From Candidatus Nomurabacteria bacterium (GTDB taxonomy: Bacteria; Patescibacteriota; Minisyncoccia; Phycocordibacterales; UBA9973): 64,000 nucleotides of DNA. The first letter of the stretch is position 1. The number at the start of each line of letters is the position of its first letter. A model generated the notes under the pieces. It was not told the origin of the DNA. It saw only the letters and a list, made by a program, of their open reading frames with translations, and searched no databases. Shown in pieces: positions 1-60,931 of the stretch. The position numbers and the translations under genes were made by a program. The stretch covers positions 686 to 64,685 of the forward strand of contig JAPLXS010000004.1 of the NCBI GenBank assembly GCA_026395965.1, in the 5' to 3' direction.

Positions 1-235
1 TACTGGGTTGGCTTGCGTGTTTAATTCGAAAGACTTTTCATTATCAGCTATGCTGATTGAAAAGTACCTGGCTATGTAATAGACGAAAAGTGTATTCATG
101 GTCTCTTCTCTGTATTGTATTTCTTTATATAAATTTATTTATAGGACTCGTAATTTCACTCATATTATCACCTTGACAATTTAACCATAAAATGTATAAT
201 AAACAAAAATAAGTAAATTTTAAAAACAAAAAATA

Positions 236-3568: not shown

Positions 3569-4702
3569 ATGGATAATTCATTAAAAAAAATATTTTCTGA
3601 AGGACTCACTAGTATAACAAATGCTTTTGCTTCCAATAAATCTAAAGACCAAGCACTTGGTATTGATATTGGTACTTCTTCTATAAAAGTTGTTCAGTTA
3701 AAAAAGAAAGGTGGTAAGGCTATACTTGAAACGTATGGTGTTATTTCATTGGGTCCATACGGTAAAGTCGACATTGGTTCAGTGACAAATCTACAAACAG
3801 AAGAGATATCACGAGCACTTCTTGATGTAATAAAAGAATCAAATGTAACTACAAATTCAGCGGTAATAGCAATACCTTCATTATCAAGTTTGATATTCAC
3901 ACTATCTTTGCCTGGCACAATATCAGAAGGTCAGTTATCAAAGATTGTTCCTATTGAAGCTCGTAAATATATTCCAGTTCCTATTTCAGAAGTTGCTCTT
4001 GATTGGTTTATTATTCCCAAAGAAGCAGAGTTCGAAACTGATACAGATGCTCGAAAAGTTGTTGATGACAAAATAGAAGTCTTGGTTGTTGCTATTCACA
4101 ATGACACATTGTCAAAATATCAAGAAGTATTGAAAAAAACAGATTTACATTCAGAATCTTTTGAAATGGAAATTTTTAGTAATATACGTTCATGTTTCAA
4201 CCGTGACCTAGCTCCAGTATTGCTGATTGATTTTGGAGCTTCTAAAACAAAAGCTTCTATCGTAGAAGCGGGGATCGTGCGTGTGTTCCACGTTGTTAAC
4301 AGAGGTTCACAAGATATAACTAAAAATATATCACAGTCCATGAGCATTCCTTTTGAAGAAGCAGAAAAATTAAAAAGATCAGTCGGACTAGATGCAAGCA
4401 TTGACCCAAGAGTAGAAAATATTACACGCTTATCTGTAGATTATATCTTTTCAGACATAAACAGTGTTGTACTTGCATTTGAAAAGAAGTATAATAAAAA
4501 TATTAGTAAAGTTATTTTAGTTGGAGGTGGTTCGTTGCTTCGAGGTTTACTCGAAAATGCAAAAGAAAATTTTAAGACTGAAGTTATCTACGGTAGCCCT
4601 TTTTCGAAAACAGAAGCACCTGCTTTCCTCGCACCGATATTGGAAATTAGTGGACCAGAGTTTGCGGTAGCAGTAGGTCTCGCACTACGTCAATTATCAT
4701 AA
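3569..4702 (+). CDS. pilM: type IV pilus assembly protein PilM
   Basis: Actin-like ATPase fold with GIDIGTSSIKVV N-terminus; first gene of a pilMNO block. Confidence 0.85.
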   Translation: MDNSLKKIFSEGLTSITNAFASNKSKDQALGIDIGTSSIKVVQLKKKGGKAILETYGVISLGPYGKVDIGSVTNLQTEEISRALLDVIKESNVTTNSAVIAIPSLSSLIFTLSLPGTISEGQLSKIVPIEARKYIPVPISEVALDWFIIPKEAEFETDTDARKVVDDKIEVLVVAIHNDTLSKYQEVLKKTDLHSESFEMEIFSNIRSCFNRDLAPVLLIDFGASKTKASIVEAGIVRVFHVVNRGSQDITKNISQSMSIPFEEAEKLKRSVGLDASIDPRVENITRLSVDYIFSDINSVVLAFEKKYNKNISKVILVGGGSLLRGLLENAKENFKTEVIYGSPFSKTEAPAFLAPILEISGPEFAVAVGLALRQLS

Positions 4703-6746: not shown

Positions 6747-8486
6747 ATGGTACTTATAGAAGAACTTATAAAACGTGGTCTTCTTAAAGAGAGTGATGTT
6801 GCAAATTTAGAAAAAATTGCCAATGAAAAATATAATGGCAATATAAATGAAGCACTACTCGACTTTAATCTAGATGAAGAAAAAATACTCGAAATAAAAG
6901 GAGAGATTTTTAATATTCCTATCAAGAGTGTTGACCCTAAAAGTGTGCCAGTTTCAGTTCTTCAGCTCGTACCAGTAGGTGCTGCCAAGATATATCATTT
7001 TGCTCCGATAAATCTAACTGATAGTTTTTTGGAAATTGGAATAGTTGATCCAGACAATATTCAAGCAGTTGATGCCCTTACTTTCATTACAGCTAAATTA
7101 AATAAACCATTTAAGTTGTATTTGATTACAACATCTGTTTACAATAAGTTGATGGAAAGATATGAGGGCGATAGTACTATAGGGGTAGATCAAGCTCTAA
7201 ATGAACTCGATAGTGAGATAGCAGGAGCCCTAGATGGAGGTGTCTCTATAGAATCATCTGCAAAAACATCAGACACTCTCAAACCAGGTGAAGAAGAAAA
7301 AATAGTTGAAGATGCACCTATTATTAAAATAGTTGCAGTTATATTGCGTAGTGCAACAGAAGGACTTGCTTCCGATATTCATATTGAAAATACAGGGGAC
7401 AAGGTGAAGGTTCGTTTCCGTGTTGATGGAGTTTTGCATACATCACTTTACCTACCTATCAATGTATACAACGGAGTTATAGCTCGCATAAAGATTCTTT
7501 CAAAACTTAGACTAGATGAAAAACGTAAGCCACAAGACGGAGGATTTTCTGCAAAGATAGACAATCGTAAAATCGATTTTCGTGTTTCTACTATGCCATC
7601 ATATTTTGGAGAAAAGATAGTTATGCGTATTTTGGATTCACAAAAAGGTATACAAAAGATTGATGATATTGGTCTTTCTGTTGAAAATGTAGCTTTGATT
7701 CGTGAAGCATTAAAACGCCCCTATGGTCTTATATTACTTACTGGTCCTACTGGTTCCGGTAAGACAACTTCTCTGTATTCTATGTTAAGTGAATTAAATA
7801 ATGAAGATAAAAATATTGTTTCACTAGAAGATCCAGTTGAATACAAGATAGATGGAGTAAATCAGTCTCAGGTTATGCCAGAGATAGGATACACTTTTGC
7901 TTCTGGTCTACGTTCTATACTTCGCCAAGACCCCAATGTTATATTGGTGGGAGAAATCCGCGATAAAGAAACAGCCGAACTAGCTATTCAAGCTGCTCTT
8001 ACTGGTCACTTGGTTTTATCTACTTTACACACAAACAATTCTATTGGTGCTATTCCTCGTTTGATAGACATGGGAATAGATCCATATCTTATTGCGCCTA
8101 CTCTTATTCTTTGCATTGCACAGCGTTTGGCTCGTAAAATTCATCCAAGTTCAAAACATGCTATTCCTATAGACGATGCAACAAAACTAATGTTTGAAAA
8201 ACAGTTTGCAGATTTGCCTGTTGAATATAAATCCAAAATTAATTTAGGTGATACTATATATGAAGCTGTGCCTTCAAATGAAAGTTCTTCTGGTATGAGT
8301 GGACGTATAGCTTTGTTTGAAATGTTTAAAATAGACAAAGAGATGCAAGATATCATCTTAAAGAACCCAGAAGAACTTATTATTTATAATTATGCTCGTT
8401 CAAAAGGAATGCTTACACTCAAAGAAGATGCAATTTTGAAAAGTATAAATGGTGATATTCCAATACAAGAAGCTTTTGCTGTTTAA
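6747..8486 (+). CDS. pilB: type IV pilus assembly ATPase PilB (GspE family)
   Basis: GspE_N-like N-terminal domain, Walker A GPTGSGKTT, Asp/His boxes. Confidence 0.9.
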   Translation: MVLIEELIKRGLLKESDVANLEKIANEKYNGNINEALLDFNLDEEKILEIKGEIFNIPIKSVDPKSVPVSVLQLVPVGAAKIYHFAPINLTDSFLEIGIVDPDNIQAVDALTFITAKLNKPFKLYLITTSVYNKLMERYEGDSTIGVDQALNELDSEIAGALDGGVSIESSAKTSDTLKPGEEEKIVEDAPIIKIVAVILRSATEGLASDIHIENTGDKVKVRFRVDGVLHTSLYLPINVYNGVIARIKILSKLRLDEKRKPQDGGFSAKIDNRKIDFRVSTMPSYFGEKIVMRILDSQKGIQKIDDIGLSVENVALIREALKRPYGLILLTGPTGSGKTTSLYSMLSELNNEDKNIVSLEDPVEYKIDGVNQSQVMPEIGYTFASGLRSILRQDPNVILVGEIRDKETAELAIQAALTGHLVLSTLHTNNSIGAIPRLIDMGIDPYLIAPTLILCIAQRLARKIHPSSKHAIPIDDATKLMFEKQFADLPVEYKSKINLGDTIYEAVPSNESSSGMSGRIALFEMFKIDKEMQDIILKNPEELIIYNYARSKGMLTLKEDAILKSINGDIPIQEAFAV

Positions 8487-8573
8487 TAGAAATTCATATA
8501 CCCATCACTTATTGTTATATCGAATACGATAGAACAACGGCACTCGGACAGCAAGCAAATGAATCGCTATTAA

Positions 8574-8689
8574 TTTGCTTATGCTCCTCGTTTGTTGTTA
8601 TATGGGGTGCCATAGAACAAAAGCGTTCGGACATTATGCAAATTAAAGATTACTTTATTTGCATATGCTCCTCACTTGTTGTTATAATA
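8574..8689. repeat. 116-bp conserved intergenic element, copy A, with partial upstream tandem unit(s) from about 8496
   Basis: 97% identical to 12135-12250 (3 mismatches); contains two internal half-repeats gcWtatgctcctcRYttgttgttata and ends in an extended -10-like tgttataata 5 nt before the ATG. Confidence 0.8.
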
Positions 8690-8694
8690 AATAT

Positions 8695-9087
8695 ATGGAA
8701 ACAGAACTCAAGAATATTTTAATTGTAGACGATGATAGTTTTCTTCTTGATATGTATGCATTAAAATTTATTAAATCCAATTTTAATGTTACCTCAGCTC
8801 TTGGGTCAGAGTTAGCCCTAGAAAAACTCAGAGGGGGACTCGTACCTGAGATTATTATTCTAGATATTATGATGCCAGTAATAGATGGGTTTGAGTTATT
8901 GGAAAAAATAAAAAGAGAAAATTTAGCCCCAAATGCAATAGTTATATTTCTCTCAAACAGAGGTCAGCCATCTGATGTAACTCGCGCAGAAGCAGCTGGT
9001 GCCTCGGGTTATATCATAAAAGCTTCATGTATACCTAGTGAAGTTGTAGAAAAAGTTGTTAAAATAATTAATAATACAAAGAAATAA
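8695..9087 (+). CDS. receiver-only response regulator (CheY/PilH-like)
   Basis: ILIVDDD ... ILDIMMP ... receiver motifs; no output domain; the ORF-track N-terminus MHMLLTCCYN comes from the repeat, the true start is METELK. Confidence 0.8.
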   Translation: METELKNILIVDDDSFLLDMYALKFIKSNFNVTSALGSELALEKLRGGLVPEIIILDIMMPVIDGFELLEKIKRENLAPNAIVIFLSNRGQPSDVTRAEAAGASGYIIKASCIPSEVVEKVVKIINNTKK

Positions 9088-9088
9088 T

Positions 9089-10150
9089 ATGGATTACAAA
9101 AATTTTGTTCATGTCTTGATAGAAAATCTAATAAACCAAGATGGGTCAGACTTACATCTAGGAGTAGGTCGCAAACCAGCTATAAGAATAAATGGACAGC
9201 TTGTTTTTCTTGTAAATAATCCTGCTTCAACAGAGGCTGATATGATGGGAGTTTTGGATGTGCTTATAGGACAAGATAGAGTTAAAAAATTTATAGATAC
9301 AAAAAATTCAGACTTCTCTGGTAATCTAAATGATGGCAAAGTTCAAATTCGTGGAAACGCATATTATCAGCGTGGCATGGTTTGTATTGCTATACGTTTA
9401 GTTCCAAAACCAAAAACATTTGAAACTTTAAATCTACCACCAATACTTCGCGATTTTTCTAGAAAAAAACAAGGATTTTTTCTTGTAGTAGGTCCAGTGG
9501 GACAAGGTAAGTCTACAACTCTATCTACTATGATCAATATGATAAATTCTGAAACATCATCTCACATAATGACTGTTGAAGATCCGATAGAATTTATATA
9601 TCAACCAGATAAGTCTATAGTAGATCAAAGAGAAGTGGGGGTAGATACTCCAGATTTTGTGGGAGCATTGAAAGCATTACTTCGTGAAGATGCAAATGTT
9701 CTTCTTATTGGAGAAATGCGTGACCCAGATACAATATCAGCGGCAGTTACAGCAGCTGAAACTGGGCATTTGGTATTTTCAACTTTACATACAAACAATG
9801 CTTCTCAAACCATAGACCGTATTATAGATTCATTTTCACCAGCACAGCAGGGACAGATTCGCTTGCAGTTGGCATCTAGTTTGCTTGGTATATTTTCACA
9901 GCGTTTGATTCCTCGTATTGCTGGTGGACGTATTCCAGCATATGAACTTCTCATAAACAACAAAGCTGTTGCAAACCTTATCAGAGAAAAGAGAACACAT
10001 GAGATAGATACAGTCATAGAGACTTCTTCACAAGAGGGTATGATAGATATGAACAGATGTCTTATCGACTTAGTACAAAGAGGAGAGATAAGTTTAGAAG
10101 TAGCTTATGAGTATTCAATTAATCCTAAGGCTCTAGAGCAAATGTTTTAA
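9089..10150 (+). CDS. pilT: twitching motility ATPase PilT
   Basis: Walker A GPVGQGKST, PilT-type Asp/His boxes, about 350 aa. Confidence 0.9.
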   Translation: MDYKNFVHVLIENLINQDGSDLHLGVGRKPAIRINGQLVFLVNNPASTEADMMGVLDVLIGQDRVKKFIDTKNSDFSGNLNDGKVQIRGNAYYQRGMVCIAIRLVPKPKTFETLNLPPILRDFSRKKQGFFLVVGPVGQGKSTTLSTMINMINSETSSHIMTVEDPIEFIYQPDKSIVDQREVGVDTPDFVGALKALLREDANVLLIGEMRDPDTISAAVTAAETGHLVFSTLHTNNASQTIDRIIDSFSPAQQGQIRLQLASSLLGIFSQRLIPRIAGGRIPAYELLINNKAVANLIREKRTHEIDTVIETSSQEGMIDMNRCLIDLVQRGEISLEVAYEYSINPKALEQMF

Positions 10151-10153
10151 TAT

Positions 10154-11365
10154 ATGTTATACAATTACGAGGCACTTACAAGTACAGGAGAAAAAAAGAC
10201 TGGAACCATAGATACAGGTTCCAAGGACTTAGCTATTGCAGCTATTCAGCGTAGAGGTTTGATTCTTTCTTCCATCAAAGAAGATACAGGCAAAAAAGGA
10301 TTTTTAAATATATCATTTTTCAATACGGGGAGTGTTCCTATGAAAGATATCGTGATAATGTCTAGACAAATGTCTACTCTTTTCGAATCACAAGTTGCTG
10401 CACTAAAAGCATTTAACCTACTTTCAGAAAATACTGCAAATAAATACCTAGCAAACATACTATCTATAGTTGCCGAGGATATTAAATCCGGAGTATATAT
10501 ATCTGTTGCTTTATCAAAACACCCCAAAGTATTTTCTGACTTTTATGTGAACATGGTTAAGTCAGGAGAAGAATCAGGTAAACTCACACAGACTTTTTCT
10601 TATCTTGCAGACTATCTTGATCGTCAGTATCAACTTTCATCAAAGACTAAAAATGCTCTTATATACCCAGGGTTCGTTATTGGAGTTTTCTTTATTGTTA
10701 TGACAATGATGTTTGTTTTTATTATCCCAAAACTTACTTCTATTATTAAAGAGTCAGGAATGGCAATACCATTTTTTACAAAGATTATAATGGCAACCAG
10801 TGATTTCCTTATAAATTATGGAATTATCTTATTGATAGGACTAGCAATTTTTGTTGTATATATTGTTCGTTTTTCTAGTAGTGAAAGTGGAAAAATGTAT
10901 TTTGATAGATTGAAAATAACACTACCAGTTTTTAAAAATATATATTCAAAGCTTTATCTTGCTCGTATTTCAGATAATATGGATACAATGCTTTCGTCTA
11001 GTATACCTATCGTTCGTGCGATAGAGCTTACTGGTGCAGTGACAGGCAATAGAGTATATGAACAAATATTAAAAGACGTTGCAGATTCTGTAAAATCCGG
11101 TAGCTCTCTGTCAGAAGCTTTTGGAAAACATAGCGAGATACCAAGTATAATGTCAGGTATGATTCGTGTGGGGGAAGAAACAGGCTCTATTGGTAATATT
11201 TTGAAAACTTTAGGACATTTTTATACTAGAGAAGTAAATGATGCCGTCGACACTATGGTTAGTTTGATCGAACCTATCATGATTATAATGCTAGGTCTTG
11301 GGGTTGGAATACTTCTTGCTGCGATTTTGATGCCTATTTATGATATCGCTGGAGGTATAAGTTAG
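10154..11365 (+). CDS. pilC: type IV pilus inner-membrane platform protein PilC (GspF family)
   Basis: Two GspF repeats with three TM segments. Confidence 0.85.
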   Translation: MLYNYEALTSTGEKKTGTIDTGSKDLAIAAIQRRGLILSSIKEDTGKKGFLNISFFNTGSVPMKDIVIMSRQMSTLFESQVAALKAFNLLSENTANKYLANILSIVAEDIKSGVYISVALSKHPKVFSDFYVNMVKSGEESGKLTQTFSYLADYLDRQYQLSSKTKNALIYPGFVIGVFFIVMTMMFVFIIPKLTSIIKESGMAIPFFTKIIMATSDFLINYGIILLIGLAIFVVYIVRFSSSESGKMYFDRLKITLPVFKNIYSKLYLARISDNMDTMLSSSIPIVRAIELTGAVTGNRVYEQILKDVADSVKSGSSLSEAFGKHSEIPSIMSGMIRVGEETGSIGNILKTLGHFYTREVNDAVDTMVSLIEPIMIIMLGLGVGILLAAILMPIYDIAGGIS

Positions 11366-11561
11366 AAATAAGTTTGCTTTAATTGATTATATGATATAAT
11401 GATTAAAGTTAAATGATTAAAAGTAGAGTCGCGTCTTTTTACAAAGATAAATTATTAAAATTAAATTAATGTCGTATTTCAATTGTCGCCATGCGGCTTT
11501 GATTTAAATCAAACAGATAAGTTTAGGGGATTATCATTCTAAACTATCTATATAAAAATAT

Positions 11562-12062
11562 ATGAATAAAAATAAAGGTTTTACACTTATTGAATTGTTG
11601 GTTGTTATTGCTATTATCGGTATCTTGTCTTCAGTTGTTTTAGCCTCATTAAACACAGCTCGTACTAAAGGATCTGATGCTGCTGTTAAGTCAAACCTAT
11701 CAAACATGAGAGCTCAAGCAGAACTTCAGTACAATGAATATGGTTGTTATACAGTCTCAGGAGCATGTAATGCTACAACACCAGCTGCTGTTGCTGCGGG
11801 TGCTTGTGTTGCTACTGCTAGTACTCTTTTTGCTCAGACAAATATTTCATCTGCAATTACATCTGCATTAAATGCTGGTGGAGGACTTTCTTCTTGTAAG
11901 TCATCAGTTGGAGGAGGTGCATGGGCTACAATAGTGCAAGAAAAGTCAGCAACAAAATCATGGTGCGTAGATAGTACTGGAGCTTCAAAAGAAATAACAA
12001 TTCCTGCTTCTCCTCTCCAGTCAGATTTAGATGGGCATCTTTCTACTGGTGCTTGTGTATAA
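11562..12062 (+). CDS. type IV pilin (major pilin candidate)
   Basis: Prepilin leader and N-methylation motif KGFTLIELLVVIAIIGIL; Cys pairs in the C-terminal region. Confidence 0.85.
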   Translation: MNKNKGFTLIELLVVIAIIGILSSVVLASLNTARTKGSDAAVKSNLSNMRAQAELQYNEYGCYTVSGACNATTPAAVAAGACVATASTLFAQTNISSAITSALNAGGGLSSCKSSVGGGAWATIVQEKSATKSWCVDSTGASKEITIPASPLQSDLDGHLSTGACV

Positions 12063-12081
12063 TCATAAATTTTAAATTAAA

Positions 12082-12105
12082 AAACCACCTTCGGGTGGTT
12101 TTTTA
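12082..12105 (+). terminator. rho-independent terminator after the pilin gene
   Basis: aaaaccaccttcgggtggtttttt. Confidence 0.7.
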
Positions 12106-12134
12106 ATTATATTTTTATGAAGTATAAAAATACA

Positions 12135-12250
12135 TTTGCTTATGCTCTTCGTTTGTTGTTATATGGGGTACCATAGAACAACAGCGTTCGGACATTATGC
12201 AAATTAAAGATTACTTTATTTGCATATGCTCCTCACTTGTTGTTATAATA
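12135..12250. repeat. 116-bp conserved intergenic element, copy B
   Basis: 97% identical to 8574-8689; ends 5 nt before the pilD ATG. Confidence 0.8.
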
Positions 12251-12255
12251 TACAC

Positions 12256-13068
12256 ATGTATATACTAATATTTGCATTCATTTTTTTAATAGGTACTATT
12301 ATTGGAAGTTTTTTAAATGTAGTTATTTATAGATTTAATACAGGTATGACTCTAGTAAACGGAAGATCTATTTGTATGACTTGCAACAGAAATCTTAGAT
12401 GGTTTGAGCTTATACCAGTTTTAAGTTTTTTGATTCAGTCTGGTAAATGCCGTCGTTGTGAGAGCAAGATATCTCATCAGTATCCTATTGTTGAATTTTT
12501 GACTGGTGTTGTATTTACTCTCGTTGCATACAAATTTATGCCAATTTTATACTTTTCAAGCCAAATGTATTTTTCTCTTGTTTTGTTATATATGTTTATG
12601 TTTTCTGTTTTAATAGTTATTTCTGTATATGATTTACGTCATAAAATAATCCCAGACAAATTGGTTATTATATTTATCATTTCTGCATTTTTATCTATGT
12701 TTATAAATTCATCTCCATTTGGACCTCTATTTATAATCCCATCATACGCTGCTCTAGTTTCTGGACCTATGCTAGCTTTGCCTTTTGCTCTACTTTGGTT
12801 GTTTTCAAAGGGGCGTCTTATGGGTCTAGGGGACGGGAAACTAGTTTTAGGTATTGGATGGATGCTTGGACTTTCTTCGGGTATCTTTATGGCAGTATTA
12901 TCATTTTGGATTGGTACTATCGTAAGTGTTGCTTTGATATTTTTATCCAAAAATAAAATAAATATGAAGTCAGAAATACCATTTGCACCATTTCTTATTG
13001 TAAGTGCACTTATTGTATTTATTTTTAATTTAGATGTTTTTTCTTTAATTAGATTATTTAGTATATAA
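12256..13068 (+). CDS. pilD: prepilin peptidase PilD (A24 family)
   Basis: Zinc-binding CxxC...CxxC tetrad (CMTCNRNL ... CRRCESKI) and polytopic TM body; start corrected to MYILIF because the upstream 12 codons derive from the repeat. Confidence 0.85.
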   Translation: MYILIFAFIFLIGTIIGSFLNVVIYRFNTGMTLVNGRSICMTCNRNLRWFELIPVLSFLIQSGKCRRCESKISHQYPIVEFLTGVVFTLVAYKFMPILYFSSQMYFSLVLLYMFMFSVLIVISVYDLRHKIIPDKLVIIFIISAFLSMFINSSPFGPLFIIPSYAALVSGPMLALPFALLWLFSKGRLMGLGDGKLVLGIGWMLGLSSGIFMAVLSFWIGTIVSVALIFLSKNKINMKSEIPFAPFLIVSALIVFIFNLDVFSLIRLFSI

Positions 13069-38223: not shown

Positions 38224-38565
38224 ACCTAATGATGTCAGAGAAAAGGTCTTCTGCTAAGCTATCGCTTGTTGGCAACTTGTTGGTAACTTCCTCTGATATT
38301 TTAAGCTATTGCGATAGAATGGGCTTTGAATAATATGGTCGAAGTGATATTATTTAATTACAACTAAATATATAAAGTAAGTAGCCTAAACCTTTGGTAA
38401 CAAAGGCATGGTGAATAAGAGCGGATAAAGCATAAAGAACTCCTAGTCAGAGCTCGGCTTTATCCGCCCATACTTGGAAACGAGTATGTGTAGCTGAAAA
38501 GCTACAAGCTGGCTGGGAGCTTTTTGCGTCTTAGCCAGATTTATAACAAAACGCAAAAAATAACT
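38224..38565. promoter_or_regulatory. unusually long hairpin-rich non-coding region adjacent to the serine recombinase (candidate att/junction or structured leader)
   Basis: 300 bp non-coding in a compact genome; stems gcggataaagc/gctttatccgc, catact/agtatg, ctggct/agccag, cctttg/caaagg; 11-bp direct repeat cttgttggYaa. Confidence 0.3.
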
Positions 38566-59198: not shown

Positions 59199-59330
59199 AT
59201 GCAAGAAGAAGAAACAACTACAGTTGAAGAAACAGTAGAAGCCCCAGTAGTAGAAGAAACAACTACAGCCGAAGAAACTGTAGAAGCTCCTACAGAAGAA
59301 GCAACACCAACAGAAGAAACAGCTGCATAA
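59199..59330 (+). CDS. small acidic E/T-rich repeat peptide (43 aa)
   Basis: MQEEETTTVEETVEAPVVEETTTAEETVEAP...; a -10-like tataat upstream and a strong terminator downstream. Confidence 0.3.
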   Translation: MQEEETTTVEETVEAPVVEETTTAEETVEAPTEEATPTEETAA

Positions 59331-59342
59331 GCTTTTTAAATT

Positions 59343-60110: not shown

Positions 60111-60362
60111 ATGTATTTTGTTTATATATTAGAATGTGCTGATCAAACTTTATATACAGGTTCTACAAATGATCTTAAAAAGAGAATGCACAAGCACAAC
60201 AATCTAAAATCTGGAGCGCATTATACAAAGATACGCAGACCAGTTGTTTTAAAATATTCTGAAGAATTTAATACTTATAAAGAAGTAAGAGCACGTGAAG
60301 CAGAGATAAAACGTATGAAAAGAGAGGAAAAAATAGAATTAATAAAAATAAGTTTCAAATAA
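60111..60362 (+). CDS. GIY-YIG nuclease domain protein (YhbQ-like)
   Basis: FVYILECADQTLYTGSTNDLKKRMHKH; start moved to the internal ATG after the upstream terminator. Confidence 0.7.
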   Translation: MYFVYILECADQTLYTGSTNDLKKRMHKHNNLKSGAHYTKIRRPVVLKYSEEFNTYKEVRAREAEIKRMKREEKIELIKISFK

Positions 60363-60931
60363 TGCAAAAGACGATACAGCTAGACGGTAAAAATATTACA
60401 TACACGTTAAAAGTTAGTAAACGAGCAAAACATATTAGAGTTGCTGTACTTAGTGACGGAAGTATTGTAGCTACAATTCCACCGTATGTTCCTTTGATAA
60501 TAGTTGAAAATTTTATAGTAAAAAAATCACAATGGATTCTAGATAAGATTGAATATTTTTCAAAATTTAAAGGTAATAGTTTTAAAAAAGGAACTCATTT
60601 GGAATACCTTAAATATAAAAATAAAGCACTAATGTTAGTTACTAATCGTATAGAATATTTTAATAATTTTTATGGTTATAAGTGGAATAAAATTGTTATT
60701 AGAAATCAAAGTACTAGATGGGGAAGTTGCTCAAAAAATGGTAATTTAAATTTTAATTATAAAATAGCATTACTTCCAGAAAATGCAGCCGATTATATTA
60801 TTGTGCATGAACTCTGTCACTTAAGAGAATTTAATCATTCTCATAACTTTTGGAATTTGGTTGCTAAAACTATTCCGGATTATTTAGATATTAGAAGAGA
60901 ACTAAAAAGTAATGGTTTTATACTTAAATAA
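60362..60931 (+). CDS. DUF45 / YgjP-like metal-dependent hydrolase, copy 2
   Basis: HELCHLREFNHS; about 65% identical at protein level to the copy at 28280-28849. Confidence 0.75.
   Translation: MQKTIQLDGKNITYTLKVSKRAKHIRVAVLSDGSIVATIPPYVPLIIVENFIVKKSQWILDKIEYFSKFKGNSFKKGTHLEYLKYKNKALMLVTNRIEYFNNFYGYKWNKIVIRNQSTRWGSCSKNGNLNFNYKIALLPENAADYIIVHELCHLREFNHSHNFWNLVAKTIPDYLDIRRELKSNGFILK

Follow-up and report, generated by a model that had tools for sequence, protein, structure and literature searches.

A dispersed palindromic repeat with a predicted leaderless promoter upstream of pilus and other genes in Candidatus Paceibacteria

Introduction

Why should two operon starts of one type IV pilus locus be preceded by nearly the same 116 nt of DNA? 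The question is raised by a 64,000-nt stretch of a Candidatus Nomurabacteria genome (contig JAPLXS010000004.1 of assembly GCA_026395965.1; in the following the window), in which the segments 8574–8689 (copy A) and 12135–12250 (copy B) directly precede the gene of a response regulator (RR) and the prepilin peptidase gene pilD, respectively. A first-pass annotation had regarded them as a promoter-operator module shared by two pilus sub-operons. We assign a probability of roughly 0.6 to a different explanation, according to which the 116-bp sequence belongs to a dispersed family of palindromic repeats of ca. 83 nt, comprising one unit and the promoter end, and constitutes a portable promoter rather than an operator specific for this locus.

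Candidate Phyla Radiation (CPR) bacteria, which include the Nomurabacteria, are uncultured, contain very few recognisable regulators and need type IV pili for their lifestyle; to our knowledge, almost nothing has been established about the control of their gene expression. The family described here offers a concrete, searchable promoter module for these organisms and would represent a structured repeat that remodels, between close relatives, the promoter regions of genes for pili, transport and stress.

Organization of the element

Pairwise alignment of copies A and B revealed 3 mismatches in 116 nt, and the slightly extended pair 8573–8697 and 12134–12258 was returned by the repeat finder (family D1, spacing 3561) as the longest direct repeat of the window. 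The identity amounts to 97% across the 116-nt core and to 95% across the 105 nt upstream of the ATG; in both copies TGTTATAATA ends 5 nt upstream of the start codon, at 8695 for the RR gene and at 12256 for pilD. The half-repeat ATGCTCYTCNNTTGTTGTTATA occurs four times in 64 kb, always inside the two copies (shuffled sequences let expect none), and the inverted pair TTGTTATATNG-N4-CNATAGAACAA three times (0.03 expected), its third instance lying at 8512–8537 in a degenerate unit upstream of copy A. The 97% duplication, the two half-repeats per copy, the inverted pair ttgttatatgg/ccatagaacaa, the distance to the two ATG codons and the additional upstream unit, all listed in the first-pass annotation, were thereby recovered; the upstream unit is now placed at 8494–8573, and both downstream genes are supported by Pfam. 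A covariance model applied with filters off to the whole 64-kb window found no copy beyond A and B. Logan contigs from a separate assembly (SRR20698642) break within the 70-nt identical stretch, L002 stopping at about window position 8651 and L001 covering about 8660–12212, which is the behaviour expected of a true repeat. In practice, the repeat breaks short-read assemblies inside the pilus locus.

The unit of ca. 83 nt is palindromic nearly throughout and forms two hairpins, termed H1 (stem of 8–14 bp) and H2 (ca. 20 bp). It is composed of H1 (TTGTTATATNG, a 4-nt loop and CNATAKAACAA), the linker GCNYTCGGAC, the long H2 starting with GGA-CAT-t-ATGCAAAT and continuing into a variable upper stem with a 4-nt loop, and the final segment GCTCCTC-NN-TTGTTGTTATA. 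The right arm of the unit contains a −35 hexamer TTGCWT, an 18-nt spacer and TGTTATA. Copy A with its upstream unit is a short head-to-tail array with a period of ca. 83 nt, built of the degenerate unit, a full unit and a terminal segment ending in TGTTATAAT. The individual features are:

8494–8573, forward strand, degenerate upstream unit u0 of copy A, with spacer remnants, H1, linker GGCACTCGGAC and, of H2, the loop and 5′ arm
8512–8537, forward strand, H1 of u0, TTGTTATATCG-AATA-CGATAGAACAA
8546–8587, forward strand, H2 bridging u0 and u1, GGACAGCAAGCAAAT...ATTTGCTTATGCTCC
8574–8689, forward strand, copy A, one full unit and terminal segment with the predicted promoter, 108 bits with the covariance model
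8595–8620, forward strand, H1 of copy A, TTGTTATATGG-GGTG-CCATAGAACAA
8629–8671, forward strand, long H2 of copy A, GGA CAT t ATGCAAAT..loop ATTA..ATTTGCAT ATG c TCC, with the −35 hexamer in the 3′ arm
8659–8688, forward strand, predicted promoter of copy A, −35 TTGCAT at 8659–8664, 18-nt spacer, TG at 8680–8681, −10 TATAAT at 8683–8688
12135–12250, forward strand, copy B, beginning inside the 3′ arm of an H2, 115 bits with the covariance model
12156–12181, forward strand, H1 of copy B
12190–12232, forward strand, H2 of copy B
12220–12225, forward strand, predicted −35 hexamer of copy B
12244–12249, forward strand, predicted −10 box TATAAT of copy B

The hairpins are maintained by compensatory changes. 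Within the window, H1 of u0 contains CG/CG where the next H1 contains GG/CC, and the H2 at 8546–8587 contains AAGCAAAT/ATTTGCTT where the next one contains ATGCAAAT/ATTTGCAT. The region of the element folds far better than shuffled sequences on either strand (z = −4.1 for plus, z = −5.7 for minus). In an alignment of 60 distinct units, 97% of the cells of H2 are paired and four of its pairs covary; the loop-proximal pair of H1 is CG in 23, AU in 17, GC in 12 and UA in 2 units, and the TA in the H1 loop is conserved to more than 90%. More divergent flanking units exchange GGA/TCC for GAA/TTC and AGA/TCT (L017, L057). In addition, the 3′ arm of H1 (A′, CNATAKAACAAC) and the unit's end (A2, GTTGTTATA, the terminal TTGTTGTTATA) are complementary and form a well-paired alternative helix of 11 bp. 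Covariation is also found here, pair 41-111 being AU in 48, GC in 6, CG in 1 and UA in 1 unit, together with the covarying pairs 45-107 and 44-108; two further pairs, 50-103 (TA 24, CG 22) and 49-104 (AT 19, GC 14), shut the internal loop. The segment from A′ through A2 can thus be regarded as one hairpin of ca. 35 bp with the predicted promoter in its 3′ half, and A′ can, judged by complementarity, alternatively pair with the preceding A arm. A′ and A2 are inverted repeats within a unit that is palindromic throughout and shows no unambiguous outermost ends.

Neither mismatch counts nor folding energies show a bias towards the sense strand. A-C mismatches outnumber G-U pairs in H2 (24 versus 10), the sole sense-strand G-U pairs being the near-invariant GG/TT at its base, and for 43 of the 60 units folding is slightly better on the antisense strand. 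The hairpins are mostly located upstream of the predicted transcription start site (TSS), and many elements begin 10–30 nt past a canonical terminator. A promoter transcribing the hairpins from upstream would have little space there, which argues against a classical 5′-leader RNA and for a role at the DNA level or in read-through transcripts. A riboswitch or leader RNA is disfavoured by the hairpin position, the A-C over G-U excess and the antisense advantage. Searches of the window against Rfam at gathering score yielded no family matching the element, and at E ≤ 10 within 8400–12400 the overlapping hits were far below gathering (25.7 versus 52.7 bits at 12186–12265 and 11.3 versus 50 at 8656–8715).

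Architecture of the predicted promoter

The sequence TGtTATAAT is found at 8680–8688 and 12241–12249 and is followed in both copies by the ATG after 6 nt. Together with TTGCAT and the 18-nt spacer, the 3′ end of each copy has the composition of a sigma-70-type extended −10 promoter, and the transcripts starting from it are predicted to be leaderless. Across the family, the gap between TATAAT and the start codon is 6–8 nt in 36 of 49 elements; the classes are 6 nt (n = 23), 7 nt (n = 8), 8 nt (n = 5), 9–14 nt (n = 9) and longer (n = 5), and TATACT replaces TATAAT in three cases. This finding is unbiased because the search pattern excluded both the −10 box and the ATG.

The same layout is found elsewhere in the genome. 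Only 2 of 65 window genes are preceded by a Shine-Dalgarno sequence, and other first genes carry TGnTATAAT 6–9 nt upstream of the ATG (e.g. 22879, 41828, 46932, 50372 and, on the minus strand, 58047), as do the repeat-finder families D3 and D10. The element terminus therefore has the layout customary for leaderless promoters of this genome, in which leaderless initiation appears to be the default. The near-leaderless transcripts postulated in the first-pass annotation hold up as a prediction in this setting.

Automated calling of open reading frames (ORFs) extends the RR and pilD genes upstream to TTG codons at 8659 and 12220 inside the element, since the frame stays open through it, and in the relative L005 an open frame (7403–7999) spans two units. 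Gene callers may accordingly mis-annotate starts downstream of the element. The in-frame extension ATGCTCCTC... and a minus-strand GAGGAG-ATG mini-ORF were considered as coding sequences and discarded, neither being conserved.

Occurrence in related genomes

A search of GTDB with a pattern of H1 and linker gave matches in two metagenome-assembled genomes of Candidatus Paceibacteria/Paceibacterota. The spacer between pilB and the RR gene on JAENWX010000003 contains four full units and the terminal segment, and on JBBRWS010000006 two units precede the gene of a TrwB/TraD-like ATPase outside the pilus genes. A second pattern, comprising H2 and its flanks, matched 56 metagenomic loci, of which three are GC-rich chance matches and 53 remain. 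The element, in arrays of 1–4 units, lies upstream of and co-oriented with an ORF at nearly all of them, apart from a few loci lacking a resolved start or situated at a contig end. The downstream genes, located on many Paceibacteria contigs, belong to more than 20 families. They encode two kinds of PilB (T2SSE), RR-pilT, PilD, pilin and a TrwB/TraD-like ATPase, in addition CorA, MgtC, VIT1, TMEM175, an MscS-like protein and an AI-2E transporter, and furthermore an Rce1/CPBP protease, a PDZ protease, RelA/SpoT, DnaX, FtsK, MreB, HPF, a methyltransferase and surface proteins. Type IV pilus genes account for about a quarter of the loci and are over-represented.

As far as sampled, the family appears to be confined to Paceibacteria/Nomurabacteria of the CPR. 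No additional copies were detected in ca. 405 kb of flanking sequence, and the covariance model applied to the window and ca. 550 kb of related loci found only the known copies and those at the RR and pilD sites; a scan of viral contigs gave 0 matches. Literature searches on CPR leaderless promoters, palindromic promoter elements and MITEs (miniature inverted-repeat transposable elements) of Patescibacteria yielded no account of the element.

Orthologous pilus loci were gathered via RR homologues and scanned with a covariance model built from the 60-unit alignment. The number of units at the RR site is four in JAENWX, two in L015 and L062, one in L068, and one plus the degenerate one in the window; the site is empty in L063, L066, L071 and L073, whose RR proteins are 75–84% identical to that of the window. 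At the pilD site, the window contains one unit, L018 two and L063 2.5, L062 retains a decayed copy that lost the 5′ arm of H2 and kept the promoter half, and JAENWX, L066 and L073 are empty. The empty sites are plain leaderless TATAAT promoters, as exemplified by L071 (aaaacattaataattatatTATAATaaatacatATG), and the pilB-RR spacer of relatives lacking the element measures 31–55 nt. The element is therefore considered dispensable at the RR and pilD promoters.

Filled and empty RR sites align up to ..attatatTATA, after which the filled ones continue with T-NG-loop-CN-ATA..., the units and ..gtTATAAT-n6-8-ATG. This alignment indicates that the array is located within the −10 box, which it regenerates. 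Of the 39 arrays that have no further unit on their left flank, 24 show TGn immediately before the first TATAT, and we interpret this as what is left of an extended −10 box.

Unit subtypes are common to non-orthologous loci of different genomes. The pilD unit of L018 is 95% identical to that of L050 (methyltransferase) and 91% identical to that of JBBRWS (TraD-like), the window copies are ca. 90% identical to the JAENWX RR unit, and L018 and L062 carry at pilD a subtype different from that of the window. Presence and absence at orthologous RR and pilD sites thus coincide with dispersed near-identical copies, as would be characteristic of a mobile element. At orthologous RR loci, the 110 nt upstream of the ATG are 64–87% identical, compared with 29–50% (saturated) at 4-fold degenerate sites, which implies selection or homogenisation among copies. 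The similarity of copies A and B had originally been attributed to selection or recent conversion. Their near identity speaks for recent copying or conversion, and the pilD site is empty or occupied by another subtype in relatives; the best reading of the sequences is that copy B would be a recent copy of A, generated by gene conversion or transposition.

Neighbouring genes and further repeats

The genes and the terminator adjoining the two copies are:

8695–9087, forward strand, receiver-only RR of 130 aa (PF00072), first gene downstream of copy A
12256–13068, forward strand, pilD, prepilin peptidase of 270 aa (PF06750, PF01478), ATG 6 nt after the −10 box of copy B
12075–12108, forward strand, canonical intrinsic terminator following the pilin gene (terminator scan), with 26 nt left to copy B downstream
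Pilus gene order according to Pfam: pilM (3569–4702), PilO-like, pilB (6747–8486), RR, pilT, pilC, pilin (11562–12062), pilD, minor pilins

Copy A follows pilB with no canonical terminator between them. The RR protein is 100% identical to the NCBI entry 'MAG: response regulator [Candidatus Nomurabacteria bacterium]'; an exact-protein lookup for PilD gave no match. The ORFs scanned near the element comprise pilus genes, LigA and an amidase, and no DNA-binding regulator adjoins the element among them. The adjacent two-component systems invoked in the first-pass annotation were not confirmed, the receiver-only RR beside the element being the sole two-component gene found nearby.

Several other features were encountered in the window and its relatives. 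At 38383–38506 (forward strand), a full-length LOOT RNA (RF03000), a motif of unknown function, was detected with 77.8 bits against a gathering score of 46.4. The stretch 21100–21340 beside tRNA-Asp is GC-richer and highly self-complementary, contains a perfect 29-nt inverted repeat at 21279–21340 and shares a 53-nt piece (21194–21246) in inverted form with window positions 28–80 at 85% identity; no Rfam family was found in it at gathering score, and the stretch may represent either an RNA gene so far unrecognised or another small repeat of the dispersed type. Three tandem 36-nt copies at 21611–21718 of one end of the adjacent tRNA-Met (21560–21634, minus strand) are tRNA-fragment duplications within a tRNA cluster. 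Two paralogous genes of 189 aa at 28280–28849 (minus strand) and 60362–60931 (forward strand) are inverted with respect to each other, 31 kb apart, and share ca. 71% DNA identity over 576 nt. The three tandem 45-nt repeats at 59204–59338 (identity from 82% down to 62%), rich in GAA and ACA codons, probably encode the repetitive acidic tail of a protein. The RR and pilT genes abut in the window and are separated in L071 (6393–6521) and L062 (6396–6520) by an insert of ca. 125 nt bounded by the inverted repeat CCCGTTAGAAGyCGCGAT...ATCGCGATCTGCTTCTAAwCGGG, which may be another small inserted element. The related genomes also contain a RAYT-like transposase of the Y1 (HUH) type (224 aa), which is vertically conserved and adjoins the pilus locus (L068, L075). 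A REP-like hairpin CGCAAGAACCGTTCTTGCG is found on both sides of its gene (L075 3950–4000 and 4676–4710; L079 3940–3985; L006 2270–2300) and closely upstream of further leaderless promoters; the window does not contain it.

Discussion

The data are best accommodated by the proposal that the family is probably a small non-autonomous mobile or converting repeat carrying a portable promoter. Arrays of 1–4 units would reside within a leaderless promoter's −10 box, with TGnTATA retained on the left flank and TGTTATAAT rebuilt by the last unit 6–8 nt before the start codon. The two window copies would act as promoters of RR-pilT-pilC-pilin and of pilD with the minor pilins, both giving leaderless mRNAs, and each copy would supply a −35 hexamer and a TG motif where relatives have a plain −10 promoter. 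As a leading guess, the hairpins might provide single-stranded or cruciform DNA for propagation of the repeat and additionally insulate the gene against read-through; among the conceivable roles we prefer a propagation structure to a binding site of a common regulator, and the latter to insulation or processing of read-through transcripts.

A number of observations weigh against this proposal. Certain gene families recur downstream of the element across genomes (CorA at least five times, TraD-like at least four, RR at least five), which fits a conserved regulon as well as mobility. Copies per genome appear to be low, with two in the 64-kb window and one match of the strict pattern in the part scanned of a 593-kb contig. 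Many copies, either orientation and disruptive insertions, typical of MITEs and Correia elements, are not found; the copies are few and oriented towards the gene. Within the sequences covered, we found neither a cognate transposase or autonomous element with matching ends nor an excision junction, nor any terminal inverted repeats that were clear and accompanied by an unambiguous duplication of the target site, and the TATA flanking the arrays on both sides at the RR site may be either a 4-bp duplication or element-borne. Strong compensatory evolution is seen in hairpins that lie mostly upstream of the predicted TSS. The invariance of CGGAC, GCAAAT, ATTTGC and GCTCC in the alignment was in part imposed by the search pattern, and promoter activity and TSS are predictions from the sequence.

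We tentatively consider a more specific version in which the portable promoter targets promoters. According to this scenario, which we judge possible and clearly less probable than the general proposal, the non-autonomous hairpin element specifically inserts at a leaderless TATAAT and rebuilds a stronger combination of −35 hexamer, TG motif and −10 box at its 3′ end. H1 would form by pairing of an internal TATA/TAKA segment with the target TATA, the recognition being guided by structure or base pairing and performed by a putative recombinase, and re-insertion at the regenerated site would yield the tandem arrays. If this holds true, the family would represent an unusual mobile element that persists by restoring the very promoter into which it has inserted.

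The most serious competitor of the portable promoter, although appreciably less probable, is a regulon whose cis-element is the hairpin region, bound either as DNA or as RNA of read-through or upstream-initiated transcripts by one trans-acting factor. Such a factor would co-regulate, in Paceibacteria, the genes of type IV pili, DNA translocases and ion transporters as well as stress genes, consistent with the presence of the element at CorA, TraD-like, RR-pilT, methyltransferase, PilB and HPF genes in several genomes, the pilus share of about one quarter, a conservation far above that of synonymous sites, and the compensatory maintenance of the hairpins including the conserved TA of the H1 loop. 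It is difficult to reconcile, however, with the orthologous RR and pilD promoters of close relatives, which look normal without the element, with the decayed pilD copy of L062, in which the promoter half is retained alone, and with variable unit numbers (1–4) and subtypes common to unrelated loci. A role of the hairpins as RNA is further disfavoured by their position upstream of the predicted TSS, often 10–30 nt past a terminator with no room for an upstream promoter, by the lack of a sense-strand excess of G-U over A-C, by the slightly better antisense folding and by the absence of an Rfam match. Rather unlikely in our view is a terminator/insulator-promoter cassette, in which the AT-rich hairpin between the A-rich ATAGAACAAC and the U-rich UUGUUGUUAU halts or processes read-through by weak intrinsic termination or RNase III cleavage, and the promoter then restarts a clean leaderless mRNA. 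The hairpin between complementary A-rich and U-rich flanks does have the geometry of a bidirectional terminator, copy A follows pilB without a canonical terminator, and transcribed Correia elements are known RNase III substrates (PMC2649163). Yet the U tract is interrupted and received no call in the terminator scan, the canonical terminators employed by this genome are GC-rich and have perfect T runs, as at 12075–12108, many elements are already situated directly past one of these, and relatives without the element cope with a pilB-RR spacer of 31–55 nt.

The two copies in the window both lie in the pilus locus, and the over-representation of pilus genes among the element loci would also suit the module envisaged in the first-pass annotation, namely a pilus-specific promoter-operator duplicated for co-regulation of two sub-operons by a local regulator. 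Of this module the promoter stands as a prediction. The operator does not, as the element precedes more than 20 unrelated gene families, most of its loci are non-pilus, the same pilus promoters occur without it in relatives, and no adjacent DNA-binding regulator was found; we regard a pilus-specific device as very improbable. Dispersal at unrelated loci, which the annotation itself had named as speaking against its proposal, is largely what was observed, and some association with pilus genes remains. Even less credible are a short coding sequence and an array of RNA genes, whether TIGR-type guides or a tandem small RNA. CPR bacteria do possess TIGR arrays of tandem stem-loop units, which are defined by box C/D motifs and two variable spacers per unit beside a tas (Nop-domain) gene (bioRxiv 10.64898/2026.09.09.750476), and the units here are likewise tandem and hairpin-forming. 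They are, however, conserved throughout without spacer-like variable segments, their neighbours are pilus genes rather than tas, box C/D motifs were looked for by eye and not seen, and Rfam gave no match, so that a TIGR-Tas array was rejected. A coding sequence could draw on ATGCTCCTC... being in frame with both downstream genes of the window, but gaps of 7 or 8 nt between −10 box and ATG break the frame, and the ATG belongs to a stem position that covaries and is also occupied by ACG, GCG and GTG.

Relation to known systems

The nearest analogues are the BOX elements of pneumococcus, discussed below, and the Correia elements (CREE/NEMIS) of Neisseria, inverted repeats that generate promoters, form RNase III-processed hairpins and are present upstream of genes in a strain-specific manner (PMC2649163). 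Like these, the family is composed of small (ca. 100–150 bp in Correia), non-coding, hairpin-forming elements with sigma-70 promoters, here predicted, at their ends, with presence or absence at the same gene and with positions upstream of many genes including surface and pilus-related ones (PMC2649163). Correia elements have 26-bp terminal repeats and a target duplication, number more than 100 per genome and are found in either orientation, also inside genes, whereas the present units are palindromes over nearly their full length, are arranged in head-to-tail arrays with a period of 83 nt, are co-oriented with the gene, sit in the −10 box of a predicted leaderless promoter, are apparently of low copy number and share no sequence similarity with Correia.

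BOX elements of Streptococcus pneumoniae (boxA-(boxB)n-boxC) are modular dispersed repeats with variable tandem modules, predicted stable stem-loops and strain-dependent copy numbers, features found here as well; they lie near competence and virulence genes and affect the expression of neighbouring downstream genes (PMC3049150). They differ in having no tie to a −10 box or a fixed start-codon distance, in occurring in both orientations and in being over-represented between convergent genes, and there is no sequence relation. With the repetitive extragenic palindromes (REP) and their mosaic arrays (BIME), the family shares imperfect palindromes maintained as hairpins and sometimes arrayed. REPs are typically of high copy number and located downstream of genes. 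A REP system driven by its associated transposase (RAYT) was rejected because the hairpin flanking the RAYT-like gene of L075 and L079, CGCAAGAACCGTTCTTGCG, is another one, and no copy of the element is detected there by the covariance model.

Ordinary extended −10 leaderless promoters, as present at the empty orthologous sites, share the terminal TGTTATAAT 6–8 nt upstream of the ATG; they are devoid of the conserved covarying palindromic module of ca. 70–100 nt, of the conserved −35 hexamer and of the spacer. A further comparison is with the hairpin-embedded single-strand promoters of conjugative plasmids (Frpo/ssi) and with cruciform-controlled promoters. By analogy to these, the predicted −35 hexamer and part of the −10 region of the family form part of the 3′ arm of a long hairpin with a complementary 5′ arm; a difference is that the family occurs at chromosomal housekeeping and pilus genes. 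Promoter-bearing dispersed palindromic repeats are thus of a known kind, and what would be new here is such a family in a CPR lineage.

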